64,000 nt of DNA from Psilocybe cubensis (taxonomy: Eukaryota), in assembly GCA_017499595.2 (NCBI GenBank), contig CM039002.1, positions 2,480,001 through 2,544,000 on the forward strand, given 5' to 3'. Shown here piece after piece: positions 19,949 through 25,195 of the stretch. Within the stretch, counting starts at the first letter, position 1. Every line of letters begins with the position of its first letter. A model generated the notes under the pieces. It did no database searches, was not told where the DNA came from, and was given only the letters and a program-made list of their open reading frames with translations. Both the position numbers and the translations under genes were made by a program.

Positions 19949-20400
19949 TGTCAGGGTTTCTCCAGTTTCCCCTCTTTATCTTCACAGAATTATCTTATCC
20001 TTTCATTATCTTATCAATTATCTGATTAGATAGTTTATTTCTTTCATCACAGCCTTCTTGCTCCACTTCTTTCTAGTAAATTCTATATGATTCCTAGTCT
20101 TACTCATCCTTTTTCTATATGATGTCACTTTTATTCTTTAACCTTCCTTTATGATGTAATGTAGGAAATATTCTAGAATAACTGTAGAGTATAAATACTG
20201 GACTTGTAGGTAGCTGTAGCTTCAGCTTCAATCTCTTAGGATATCCACTATTATTGGTGTGATCTCTTAGAACCATTGAATCTCTCTCAATCTCTTATTC
20301 TCTCTTTGCTCTATTACTCTCCCTCTGCTCTCTCTCTCTCTCTCTCTTGCCTAATCTTTGTTGGTGGCCTTGTCACACTGATTATAGTGTTGCCCTGACA
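19949..20400 (+). repeat. 5' LTR
   Basis: TG...CA ends with 8-bp terminal inverted repeats; TATAAATA at 20190-20197; (CT)n tract; identical by eye to 24744-25195. Confidence 0.97.
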
Positions 20401-20402
20401 GA

Positions 20403-20413
20403 AGATTGAAGCT
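20403..20413 (+). promoter_or_regulatory. primer-binding site, self-priming (Tf1-type)
   Basis: AGATTGAAGCT is the exact reverse complement of AGCTTCAATCT (20224-20234), which lies about 30 nt downstream of the LTR TATA box. No TGG tRNA-type PBS is present. Confidence 0.8.
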
Positions 20414-20892
20414 CTCTCAAGACAACTCCACCATCTCTCTTTCAACACCAAACTCTTCACCTCTTCAACCTCTTCAACACCATTACCTCAACCTTCTTCC
20501 TCCACTTCCAACCCACCAACCTCTTCATCAACCTCTTCACCAATCTTCTTACCACTCTCTACATCTCCACCAATCTTCAACATCCTCCTCAAGACCTTTC
20601 CTCAAGACCTTTGGCTCATCATCTTTCCTACTCTCTGTTGTGTGCTGTGTGTGAACTTAGTAGATAGGGATACCAACTGTTGGGGCAGACACAGTCCTAC
20701 TAGTGTTCTGTTTTTGGTGGTCTAGGAAATATCCAGTAACCCTGTGATCCTAGGTTTAGAGCCCTGAGTGGTGTGACAACTGGGTATCCAGTAGATAGAT
20801 ATTTTTTTTAGAATACTTAGTATAGTTTCAAGGGCACTTTCAGTAGATAGCTTCTCCCACACACACATCAGAGAGCCTACCTACCCCTACCC

Positions 20893-22013: not shown

Positions 22014-22786
22014 AAGCACCATTGGTGAAAGACATGTCCCAATGGAATAGATTTAATGTACTAGAAAATGAAATTGACAGACTTGATCCTCAGTCTTCAG
22101 ATTCTGGTGCAGAAATCATGTCTTCTTCTTCCTCTCTTTCTACCTTCCCTGAAAAGATCTACATCCTCAACCATAATCCTAAAACCTCTACCCATTTGTC
22201 TGTCATCTTAAAGACAATGGACACAGAGAAAAGGTTATCTGTTGATGCTTTGCTTGATTCTGGAGCTACTGGCCTCTTTCTGCATTCTGGTTTTGTGAAG
22301 TATCATAATCTCAACACAAGGAAACTTCCTAGAGCCATTCCAGTCTATAATGTTGATGGTACTCTCAACAAGAGTGGCTCTATCCATGAGGAAGTTGACT
22401 TAATTATGGTACACAAAAACCATACAGAAAGGGCCACCTTTGCTGTTTGTGACTTGGGAGACAAATCTGCTATCATTGGACATACTTGGCTTTGGCACCA
22501 TAATCCAGATGTTGATTGGAAGACAGGGGATGTCCAGTTTATTAGGTGTCCCTCTGACTGCCAAATGGAAGCCAAAAGAGCCAGAAGAAAGAGGCAGAGA
22601 ATAGCTGCAGTCAAAAGGAGGAAACTCCCTCAATTTGATGAAGAAGAAGATGATTCTATTGAAGATTCTTCTGATTCTGAGATTGAGCCTGAGGATAGAA
22701 TTTTTATCTCATACCTTCATCCTCAGAAGCAGTCTATTAATGCTACTTCTACTATGTCTCAAAGATTAGCAGAAGAGTCTATCTGA
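22010..22786 (+). CDS. pol: pol N-terminal part: aspartic protease, in the -1 frame relative to gag
   Basis: Active site ALLDSGATG; IPVYNVDGT; IIGHTWLWHHNPDVDW. Stops at 22786, before any RT motif. Confidence 0.88.
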   Translation, partial: LEAPLVKDMSQWNRFNVLENEIDRLDPQSSDSGAEIMSSSSSLSTFPEKIYILNHNPKTSTHLSVILKTMDTEKRLSVDALLDSGATGLFLHSGFVKYHNLNTRKLPRAIPVYNVDGTLNKSGSIHEEVDLIMVHKNHTERATFAVCDLGDKSAIIGHTWLWHHNPDVDWKTGDVQFIRCPSDCQMEAKRARRKRQRIAAVKRRKLPQFDEEEDDSIEDSSDSEIEPEDRIFISYLHPQKQSINATSTMSQRLAEESI

Positions 22787-24743
22787 AGTAGAAAGGAATT
22801 ATGAGATCCATGACAAAGAGATGCTGGCTATTATCAGAGCACTAGATGAATGGAGACATTATCTTGAAGGAACCCAACATTCCTTTGAGATTTGGACAGA
22901 CCACAAAAACTTAGAGTACTTTATGGTTGCCCAAAAACTCAGCAGAAGGCAAGCCAGATGGTCACTCTTCCTATCCAGATTTGATTTTACTCTTCATCAT
23001 AGGCCTGGTAAAAGATCTCTTAAGCCAGATGCTTTGTCTAGGAGACCAGATCATAAAAAGGGAGAGAATGATAACCAAAATGTAGTTCTCCTCAAACCTT
23101 CCTACTTTAAAATCCAGGCTCTCAAGCAGGGTCATGCTACCATTACTGGTGCAGAAAATGATCTTCTTAAGAAGATTAGAGAAGCTAAGGAGATGGATGA
23201 AAAGGTGGTCAAGGCAGTTCAGGAGCTCAAGAAATCTTCTACCAAGAAGATTGAAGGACAGGAATGGTCAGAAGAACAAGGCCTTATTCTCTACAGGGGG
23301 AAGGTGTATGTTCCCAAGGACAAAGATCTTAGAAGAAAGATTGTGGAACTGCACCATGATGCCTTCATTGCTGGACATCCAGGGAAATGGAAGACAATTG
23401 AGCTAGTCTCTAGGAATTATTGGTGGCCAGGAATGTCACATTTTATTGCAGCCTATACCAGAGGTTGTGATAGATGCAACAGAACCAAAACCTTTCCAGC
23501 CAAACCTCTTGGCCTTTTAATTCCTACTGAGATTCCCTCTGATGTCTGGCAATGCATCTCTGTGGACTTTATTATGGGGTTACCAGAATGTCAAGGGTAT
23601 AATGCCATTATGGTGGTTGTGGATAGACTTAGTAAAATGATCCACATTATTCCTACTACAGATGAAGTCACTTCTGAAGGGACAGCCAGACTATACAGAG
23701 ATTATGTCTGGAAACACCATGGCTTACCCATTAAAATTCTGTGTGATAGAGGTCCACAGTTTGTCTCAAGGTTTATGAAAGAACTCAACTCAATACTTGG
23801 TATCCAGACAGCCTCATCTACAGCCTACCATCCCCAAACTGATGGTCAGACTGAAAGAGTTAACCAAGAAATTGAGCAGTATCTTAGACTCTTTATAAAC
23901 CATAGACAAGATGATTGGGTTGAATGGTTAGCTCTAGCTGAATTCTCTTATAACAATAGAGTTCAGGCTTCAACCAGGCAGACACCATTCATGCTCAATA
24001 ATGGCAGACATCCCAGAATGGGCACTGAACCCCTTAGAGATAGTAAAATGGACACTGTGGATACCTTTGTGAAAAATATGGAAGAAGCCAGGAAAGAAGC
24101 AGAGTCTGCACTTAGAAAAGCTGCTGATGATATGGCTAAATTCTATAATAGACACAGAGGTACTCCAACTCAGTACAAAGTTGGGGATTTGGTATGGTTG
24201 GATGGCAAGGACCTCAAAACTGATAGGCCCTCCAAGAAATTGGATGATAAAAGATATGGGCCTTACAAAATTACCAAAGTTATTAGCCCTAATGCCTATG
24301 AGCTTAAGCTGCCATCTACCATGAAAATCCATCCAGTGTTCAATGTGGTTAAACTTCTACCTTATCACCCAGATATTGTGGGAAGAAAGCCTCCTTCTAG
24401 ACCACCTCCTGTCATTCAAGGAGAAAATCCTAAGTGGGAAGTTGAATTTATCAAGGACAGCAGACTTTTTAGAAACAAACTTCAATATTTGGTCAAGTGG
24501 AAGAACTATCCTAATGAAGAATGCACTTGGGAGCCTGCAGAGCATTTGAAAAATGCTTCTAAGGCTATCAAGGACTTCCATGCCAAACATCCTTCAGCAC
24601 CTAGAAGGATTTCTGCTGTGACCTTTGATAGACTTTCTTTTACTCCTATTATTAACTTTACTGAACCTCCTCCTCTTCTTAAACCCTCTAAACTAACCCA
24701 TCCATGTGCACATTGTGGAAAATGTGCCTTAGAGAGGGGGTGA
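22773..24743 (+). CDS. pol: pol C-terminal part: truncated RNase H, integrase and chromodomain
   Basis: KSLSEVERNYEIHDKEMLAI, TDHKNL, RRQARW, DALSR; HHCC (HDAFIAGHPG...CDRC); DDE (VDFI, DRGPQF, DGQTERVNQ); GPY motif; chromodomain WEVEFIKD...YLVKWKNY..ECTWEP. Confidence 0.93.
   Translation, partial: KSLSEVERNYEIHDKEMLAIIRALDEWRHYLEGTQHSFEIWTDHKNLEYFMVAQKLSRRQARWSLFLSRFDFTLHHRPGKRSLKPDALSRRPDHKKGENDNQNVVLLKPSYFKIQALKQGHATITGAENDLLKKIREAKEMDEKVVKAVQELKKSSTKKIEGQEWSEEQGLILYRGKVYVPKDKDLRRKIVELHHDAFIAGHPGKWKTIELVSRNYWWPGMSHFIAAYTRGCDRCNRTKTFPAKPLGLLIPTEIPSDVWQCISVDFIMGLPECQGYNAIMVVVDRLSKMIHIIPTTDEVTSEGTARLYRDYVWKHHGLPIKILCDRGPQFVSRFMKELNSILGIQTASSTAYHPQTDGQTERVNQEIEQYLRLFINHRQDDWVEWLALAEFSYNNRVQASTRQTPFMLNNGRHPRMGTEPLRDSKMDTVDTFVKNMEEARKEAESALRKAADDMAKFYNRHRGTPTQYKVGDLVWLDGKDLKTDRPSKKLDDKRYGPYKITKVISPNAYELKLPSTMKIHPVFNVVKLLPYHPDIVGRKPPSRPPPVIQGENPKWEVEFIKDSRLFRNKLQYLVKWKNYPNEECTWEPAEHLKNASKAIKDFHAKHPSAPRRISAVTFDRLSFTPIINFTEPPPLLKPSKLTHPCAHCGKCALERG
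24731..24740 (+). promoter_or_regulatory. polypurine tract
   Basis: AGAGAGGGGG ending 3 nt before the 3' LTR. Confidence 0.85.
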
Positions 24744-25195
24744 TGTCAGGGTTTCTCCAGTTTCCCCTCTTTATCTTCACAGAATTATCTTATCCTTTCA
24801 TTATCTTATCAATTATCTGATTAGATAGTTTATTTCTTTCATCACAGCCTTCTTGCTCCACTTCTTTCTAGTAAATTCTATATGATTCCTAGTCTTACTC
24901 ATCCTTTTTCTATATGATGTCACTTTTATTCTTTAACCTTCCTTTATGATGTAATGTAGGAAATATTCTAGAATAACTGTAGAGTATAAATACTGGACTT
25001 GTAGGTAGCTGTAGCTTCAGCTTCAATCTCTTAGGATATCCACTATTATTGGTGTGATCTCTTAGAACCATTGAATCTCTCTCAATCTCTTATTCTCTCT
25101 TTGCTCTATTACTCTCCCTCTGCTCTCTCTCTCTCTCTCTCTTGCCTAATCTTTGTTGGTGGCCTTGTCACACTGATTATAGTGTTGCCCTGACA
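24744..25195 (+). repeat. 3' LTR
   Basis: 452-bp direct repeat of 19949-20400, followed by the TSD TGCAT. Confidence 0.97.

Follow-up and report, generated by a model that had tools for sequence, protein, structure and literature searches.

In the 64-kb window of the Psilocybe cubensis genome analysed here (the whole stretch of 64,000 nucleotides, contig CM039002.1, positions 2,480,001 to 2,544,000), the element at 19949-25195, which by its domains and ends is a Ty3/gypsy chromovirus, a long terminal repeat (LTR) retrotransposon of the Metaviridae, is entirely free of CpG dinucleotides. Over its 5247 bp (GC 0.413), 0 CpG are observed and 221.9 are expected from base composition. This state belongs to the whole lineage, in which coding is preserved and which is present in many copies; the copy in the window is a polymorphic insertion that carries an internal deletion. 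The reading that we consider fairly probable is a recent polymorphic insertion of a defective copy from a young CpG-free family, whose CpGs were lost to CpG-specific mutation pressure filtered by purifying selection. In the following paragraphs, the evidence for the absence of CpG is laid out together with the structure of the element, its family and relatives, and the processes which might have led to such a sequence.

Absence of CpG and preservation of coding

The CpG-free tract that contains the element spans 19901-25278 (5378 bp), and the second-longest CpG-free gap in the window measures 169 bp. A first-pass annotation of this DNA, made from the sequence alone, had reported no CG between about 19902 and 25277, frequent GC dinucleotides and CpG-rich flanks, and had proposed to count observed and expected CpG in the element and in its flanks. 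These observations hold: instead of many CpGs the count returned none within 19901-25278, GpC occurs 179 times in the element (observed/expected ratio, o/e, 0.81), and the flanks show a CpG o/e of 0.945 (left) and 0.92 (right), compared with 0.875 for the window overall. Had the element the CpG rate of its flanks, zero CpG would have a Poisson probability of about 1e-90. The end coordinate 25195 was likewise given correctly. The tract overhangs the element by 48 bp on the left and 83 bp on the right, which falls within the normal range of gap sizes, and the nearest host CpGs are found at a distance of 49 bp (left) and 83 bp (right). As CpGs resume this close to both ends, the depletion has left the adjoining host DNA unaffected.

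The absence concerns every compartment of the element, including both LTRs (13 CpG expected in each), the leader (21), gag (11 + 45), the protease region (30) and the region encoding RNase H, integrase and chromodomain (83). All of these parts, both LTR halves included, pass through RNA, and a uniform absence fits a process at the RNA level as well as one at the DNA level. CpG could, in principle, have been selected against in the genomic RNA or messenger RNA by a CpG-sensing restriction or decay pathway, as in CpG-suppressed retroviruses. The latter, together with vertebrate repeats, are similar to the present element in that retroelement CpG lies below expectation, and for vertebrate genomes an enrichment of AG and CT along with CpG loss is reported as well; their CpG o/e is about 0.2, however, not zero, and their hosts and defence systems differ. 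We regard RNA-level avoidance as highly improbable here, considering that TpA is not further lowered (o/e 0.74 in the element vs 0.73), and that no fungal RNA restriction factor which senses CpG is known to us, although no search was aimed at one. Furthermore, CG-specific DNA methylation of transposable elements (TEs) is documented in basidiomycetes, as far as the accessible text of the two sources goes (PMC7862722, PMC6191308).

TpG and CpA are barely raised in the element when compared with the rest of the window (o/e 1.22 vs 1.12 for TpG and 1.13 vs 1.14 for CpA). Their surplus amounts to about 26 sites, whereas about 200 would be expected had the CpG loss left a compensating excess. The loss is thus old relative to sequence turnover, with no fresh burst of deamination. 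As a separate observation, AG and CT are strongly enriched in the element (o/e 1.40 and 1.39, compared with 0.97 and 0.95 elsewhere in the window), which TpG and CpA are not. In vertebrate genomes, CpG loss correlates most strongly with AG/CT according to the accessible part of a preprint, which also reports CpG depletion in vertebrate TEs (bioRxiv 10.64898/2026.09.02.747768).

Coding has been preserved in the complete absence of CpG. In comparison with 120 homologues, 231 of the 235 columns conserved at a level of at least 80% are kept, as are 21 of the 22 conserved arginine columns, the exception being a change from arginine to lysine. The first-pass annotation had claimed that the conserved arginine motifs use AGA and AGG only, which applies to all 74 arginine codons in the three open reading frames (ORFs), and the arginine motifs that it quoted are present in the ORF at 22770-24743; in the long host ORFs of the window, CGN accounts for 60% of the arginine codons. 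The codons TCG, CCG, ACG and GCG are not used at all in the element ORFs. At codon junctions, none of the 355 codons preceding a G-starting codon ends in C, compared with 225 of the 869 codons preceding any other. When the element's own codons were shuffled among synonymous positions, a mean of 64 CpG resulted (1000 shuffles, minimum 49), and recoding of the element with the usage of the host ORFs gave 198 +/- 10 CpG (500 recodings, minimum 164). The junctions and the shuffles together place the avoidance at the dinucleotide level and not at that of codon usage; codon usage alone was considered as a cause and rejected, since synonymous shuffles still give at least 49 CpG. The element provides a naturally occurring coding sequence of about 1200 codons in which CpG is never used.

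Structure and defects of the window copy

The features of the element are given below in window coordinates; domain names are those of Pfam.

19944-19948, + strand: left copy of the 5-bp target-site duplication TGCAT, with the right copy at 25196-25200
19949-20400, + strand: 5' LTR, 452 bp, TG...CA ends, terminal inverted repeat TGTCAGGG...CCCTGACA
20190-20197, + strand: TATAAATA within the 5' LTR
20224-20234, + strand: candidate transcript 5' end as self-primer, 11 nt, 27 nt past the LTR TATA box
20403-20413, + strand: candidate primer-binding site, 2 nt past the 5' LTR, perfectly complementary to 20224-20234
20893-21288, + strand: N-terminal part of gag, ATG at 20893, coiled-coil-like, poly-Pro, stop at 21288
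20991-22013, + strand: gag capsid ORF with Ty3_capsid (E 3e-10), Retrotrans_gag (E 1.5e-9) and a CCHC zinc knuckle (zf-CCHC, E 3e-4), stop TAG at 22011-22013
21995-22786, + strand: protease ORF with DSGATG, aligning to residues 1-248 of relative P0241; the match to gag-asp_proteas is weak (E 3.7e-4, under the curated cut-off)
22004-22010, + strand: candidate -1 frameshift site, heptamer A AAT TTT of the form X XXY YYZ, directly before the gag stop
22770-24743, + strand: open frame of 657 aa (stop to stop) with the C-terminal part of RNase H, integrase and chromodomain
22773-22780, + strand: deletion junction, 8-nt microhomology AAGAGTCT
22773-22982, + strand: C-terminal part of RNase H, RT_RNaseH profile positions 38-105 only
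23319-23492, + strand: integrase HHCC (Integrase_H2C2)
23550-23834, + strand: rve core
within the 22770-24743 ORF, + strand: SH3_Tf2-1
24435-24584, + strand: chromodomain (Chromo, E 1.1e-15), residues 556-605 of the integrase ORF
24731-24740, + strand: polypurine tract AGAGAGGGGG, 3 nt ahead of the 3' LTR
24744-25195, + strand: 3' LTR, 452 bp, 100% identical to the 5' LTR

The element resembles the fungal Ty3/gypsy chromoviruses in its TG..CA LTRs, 5-bp duplication, polypurine tract, gag CCHC motif, protease, RNase H, integrase and chromodomain, and its pol domains follow the order expected for Ty3/gypsy from protease to RNase H and integrase, the reverse transcriptase (RT) apart. Within the chromoviruses we presume it to belong to the Tf1/sushi-like group. 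Several elements of the first-pass description are retained, namely the identical LTRs, the chromodomain, which is C-terminal in the integrase ORF, and an integrase ORF given as 640 aa and open, which corresponds to the 657-aa frame.

The means by which such an element primes and expresses its proteins can be read in part from short motifs. No tRNA-type primer-binding site was recognised by eye after the 5' LTR, and the window contains no tRNA genes. The 11-nt complementarity between the LTR and the leader, for which about 0.002 matches are expected by chance according to our estimate, suggests self-priming of reverse transcription and resembles the self-priming that has been described for Tf1. 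At the end of gag, the heptamer A AAT TTT, which we take to be a slippery heptamer, directly precedes the stop, and as pol lies in the -1 frame this makes a candidate programmed -1 ribosomal frameshift; among the variants listed from mapped reads, there is no indel at 22004-22013.

The first-pass annotation described the element as a 5.2-kb retrotransposon and overlooked that the window copy is incomplete. Its ORFs give no Pfam match to the RT domain (RVT_1), and at 22773-22780 an out-of-frame deletion has removed about 379 codons, which encode RT and the N-terminal portion of RNase H. Six close relatives with 72-84% identity and lengths of 1205-1690 aa were compared, and every one aligns on both sides of this junction and leaves 379-381 residues unmatched. 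With protease and integrase in different frames, integrase cannot be made within Pol in this copy. Gag is also affected, in that the frame of the ATG at 20893 differs from that of the capsid ORF, the change lying inside a (CCA)n tract at about 21050-21085, and a family contig of sequencing run X1 lacks 11 nt relative to the window in the interval 20372-21201. The window copy thus probably has a frameshift in gag, which may be due to slippage in the (CCA)n microsatellite. Judged by its reading frames, the copy is defective and non-autonomous.

The family in sequencing reads and its relatives

Four coded runs were mapped on window positions 18500-26700 at 80% likeness. In the raw reads of run X19, depth is about 33x in the flanks vs about 1530x in the interior of the element, and in the contigs of run X1 the word depth is about 10 vs 310-366, ratios which correspond to roughly 30-45 family copies. 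With both LTRs added together, depth is about double that of the interior, so that few solo LTRs can be present. At 22773 and 22780, respectively 995 and 917 X19 reads run, with an agreement of 0.98, into sequence that is absent from the window and that, when translated, extends the protease at the one end and RNase H at the other. The RT segment is therefore present in nearly all copies, which makes the window copy a rare product of deletion in a family whose full-length member would be about 6.4 kb. The insertion itself is polymorphic, as indicated by the empty-site joint 19943->25196, which is supported by 11 reads of X19 and by one contig of X10 and which agrees with the 5-bp duplication. 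Run X1, possibly the source sample, contains flank-to-LTR junction contigs with 0 differences. Run X14, whose RNA nature is a guess, gave five contigs of 152-227 nt with 0-2 differences on the element and 0 on the flanks, and it is not counted for expression.

The copies of the family are about 99.5% alike. Inside the element, 29 variants were listed, and 297 further variant rows of the mapping lie beyond the listing. Among the variants listed, 27 represent the family majority and fall on 21 unique sites, and none of the 29 creates a CpG, so that the CpG-free state belongs to the lineage. The LTRs differ from the family majority at six positions which are common to both, and these differences were thus inherited from the template and did not arise after insertion. 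CpG-rich autonomous relatives were what the first-pass annotation had named as evidence against it; the reads hold a family in which full-length copies prevail and whose majority is CpG-free at the 29 variants.

Post-insertion decay, a process like repeat-induced point mutation acting on the single copy, or an assembly artefact would each account for the bare absence of CpG and for nothing beyond it. We consider this group of explanations to be negligible in probability, and post-insertion decay and artefact are rejected on the identical LTRs, the open and conserved ORF and the CpG-free family majority. Two LTRs mutated independently would show, at many sites, TpG in one and CpA in the other, while here they are identical. 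The hallmarks of passive decay, such as stops, changes from arginine to cysteine, histidine, glutamine or tryptophan, and diverged LTRs, are absent, as is a compensating excess of TpG and CpA; the long frame is open, and the conserved columns and arginines are kept. Repeat-induced point mutation would leave copies that differ mainly by C-to-T or G-to-A at its target, whereas CpG is missing from the reference and, at the variants listed, from the family majority alike. The host CpGs within 49 bp and 83 bp of the element argue against this group of explanations as well, and so do the X1 junction contigs without differences, with the reservation that X1 may be the source sample.

Several variants are reported here as observations in their own right. 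Among the variant places of X19 in 18500-26700, on the + (sense) strand, C>T accounts for 98 places vs 46 for G>A, and T>C for 61 vs 46 for A>G. After correction for the approximately 1193 C and 976 G in the element, the asymmetry of C>T over G>A is still about 1.7-fold, and reverse transcription or editing could have left it. In addition, two alternative 13-nt insertions that differ by one base (G/A) occur at leader position 20585, each in about 11-12% of the X19 reads, and a 1-nt deletion occurs at position 20802 in about 40% of them, which points to sub-lineages within the family.

DNA relatives of the element comprise 80 metagenome loci (47-56% identity) and 9 loci of a viral collection (44-52% identity) among the matches listed, a scope that applies to all counts of relatives given here. 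CpG o/e in the integrase region of these 89 relatives (44-56% identity) ranges from 0.08 to 1.05 and is never zero. The lineage differs in its complete lack of CpG from the fungal Ty3/gypsy chromoviruses sampled in this way, and the window copy differs from them in lacking RT. At shared arginine positions, the share of CGN forms a continuum from 0 to 0.89 across the 80 metagenome loci. An intact integrase region, defined as one frame without stop in query residues 1-590, is present in 0 of 52 relatives with a CpG o/e below 0.7, in 1 of 29 with a ratio of 0.7-0.9 and in 5 of 8 with a ratio of at least 0.9. In the relatives, CpG loss therefore goes together with decay, and the family in the window is an exception. 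CpG-free blocks of 1-3 kb do occur on some of the fungal contigs of the relatives (among others L072 6210-9217, 3008 bp with 85 CpG expected; L073 3452-5526; L030 6614-8320). These blocks are AT-rich (GC 0.28-0.39) and contain short ORFs only, and such decayed repeats indicate that in some fungal hosts mutation suffices to remove every CpG.

At the protein level, thousands of Pol homologues with 45-87% identity are found in fungal and metagenome assemblies; the nearest show 84-87%, and the search for longer homologues gave no Pol protein with at least 90% identity, hence no intact, full-length Pol belonging to this very family. That these nearest proteins come from other assemblies would be in line with a recent horizontal arrival of the element from a fungal host with stronger CpG decay. 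The lower GC content of the element (0.413 vs 0.466 in the window) is compatible with such an arrival, and the close similarity of the copies, with about two LTRs per internal region, fits a recent burst. We nevertheless think a horizontal origin improbable, because the runs labelled as coded organisms A, B and D have the family at about 99% identity together with host flanks, and it is thus established in the species group. Moreover, a transfer merely moves the place of the CpG loss and leaves the loss itself unexplained, and no donor was identified.

Origin of the CpG-free state and its significance

In the explanation that we favour, mutation pressure filtered by purifying selection, the CpG-free state would have been inherited from a master lineage and not made in the window copy. 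The host would methylate CpG in repeats via DNMT1-RFD and DNMT5, as other Agaricomycotina do. Deamination of 5-methylcytosine (5mC), or a stronger CpG-directed mutation process, would then strip CpG quickly, with methylation as the presumed driver of the loss. In the course of many rounds of replication, transposition would have continued only in descendants whose changes could be tolerated, and hence arginine codons would have become AGA or AGG while NCG codons and C/G codon junctions disappeared. The end state would be a lineage without a substrate for CpG methylation and without CpG-type mutational targets. Its full-length members would have made the defective window copy in trans, and the RT deletion probably occurred by template switching at the 8-nt microhomology during reverse transcription. 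The first-pass annotation had proposed that CpG was purged in an active ancestor under purifying selection. This is borne out insofar as the loss predates the insertion and coding is kept, but it does not extend to the window copy, which is itself non-autonomous. In the accessible parts of the sources, methylation in basidiomycetes is described as CG-biased, located on TEs and linked to DNMT1-RFD and DNMT5 (PMC7862722, PMC6191308), and CpG transitions are over-represented in the TEs of Agaricomycotina, which is attributed to 5mC deamination (PMC3318451).

Several points weigh against this explanation. From the equilibrium N_CpG = (TpG+CpA)/2k and 744 one-step precursor sites, a rough estimate, the rate of CpG transitions would have to exceed that of all other transitions by a factor of more than about 120 for fewer than 3 CpG to be left. 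Such a bias is far above the mammalian figure and requires either hypermutation or added selection against CpG. Furthermore, the intermediate stages of such a ratchet are unseen among the 89 relatives, given that none of the 52 with a CpG o/e below 0.7 has an intact integrase region and none of the 89 is CpG-free. The RT segment of the family is known from 30 nt on each side in the loose-end consensus, and with 297 variants beyond those listed, some copies may carry CpG.

The required bias keeps an adaptive reading alive, in which CpG-free variants were favoured as they remained unsilenced by CpG methylation or as their progeny were spared CpG-targeted mutation, with the amplification of the family as a consequence. 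The idea of an active lineage that became immune to CpG-directed methylation and mutation defence by dropping every CpG, with all protein functions kept, and that amplifies for this reason, is in our view a tentative one, and adaptive escape as a whole is possible but rather doubtful. In its favour, none of the about 222 expected CpGs remains in any compartment, the LTR promoter included; the family is young and polymorphic with a high copy number, and an equilibrium reached by mutation only would need an extreme bias. By logic, an element with zero CpG cannot be marked by CpG methylation, which may or may not be the reason for its success. Against it stands the erasure of CpG by mutation alone over 1-3 kb in decayed repeats of other fungi, owing to which zero CpG does not by itself require selection for escape. 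In addition, silencing by H3K9 methylation or RNA interference (RNAi) needs no CpG. A precedent for escape is provided by TE lineages of Microbotryum, which, in the available part of the source, are reported to be poor in TpCpG where C-to-T would be nonsynonymous (PMC3318451). What the two cases have in common is the idea of active TEs that hold out under a C-to-T defence and shed target sites at which mutation would do damage; the Microbotryum lineages belong, however, to another subphylum with another target context, and the accessible text describes a paucity at nonsynonymous positions, not a complete loss in coding and non-coding sequence (PMC3318451, PMC5381629).

CpG-deficient TEs of basidiomycetes are already known, and so is the idea of TE lineages that lose hypermutation targets. 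The methylated basidiomycete TEs described in the accessible portions of the sources (PMC3318451, PMC6191308) share with the present element the depletion of CpG, a CG-methylating host class and the gypsy type. They show partial depletion and decaying copies, in contrast to the total depletion, unraised TpG and CpA, preserved ORFs, youth and abundance of the family described here. A report of a completely CpG-free, abundant and coding-conserved fungal transposon family was not found in the literature, nor was a TE or methylation study of Psilocybe cubensis, most subscription journals lying outside the search; PMC12543289 contains no information on CpG.

Depletion of CpG in fungal repeats is usually read as a scar of silencing in methylated copies that are decaying. 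In the present case, the same signature is at its extreme, yet the family which bears it is young and abundant, varies in its insertions and has kept its coding sequence conserved. This raises the testable question whether a transposon can escape a methylation or mutation defence directed at CpG only by recoding itself, and what the host uses instead, for instance H3K9 methylation or RNAi; public read sets exist for Psilocybe cubensis. If the immunity reading were true, the element would represent a retroelement that is CpG-free by nature and that counters the host defence at the level of its sequence, within the arms race between TEs and their hosts.

The host setting of the insertion is illustrated by two ORFs of the window:

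52631-57508: host ORF of 1625 aa, 100% identical over the region searched to a NUP159-like protein of Psilocybe cubensis, the next best match being at 54%
12390-13379: host ORF with a HET (heterokaryon incompatibility) domain, E 1.2e-19

The surroundings of the element are dense in genes, normal in CpG content and not repeat-rich, a noteworthy location for an element bearing a chromodomain.

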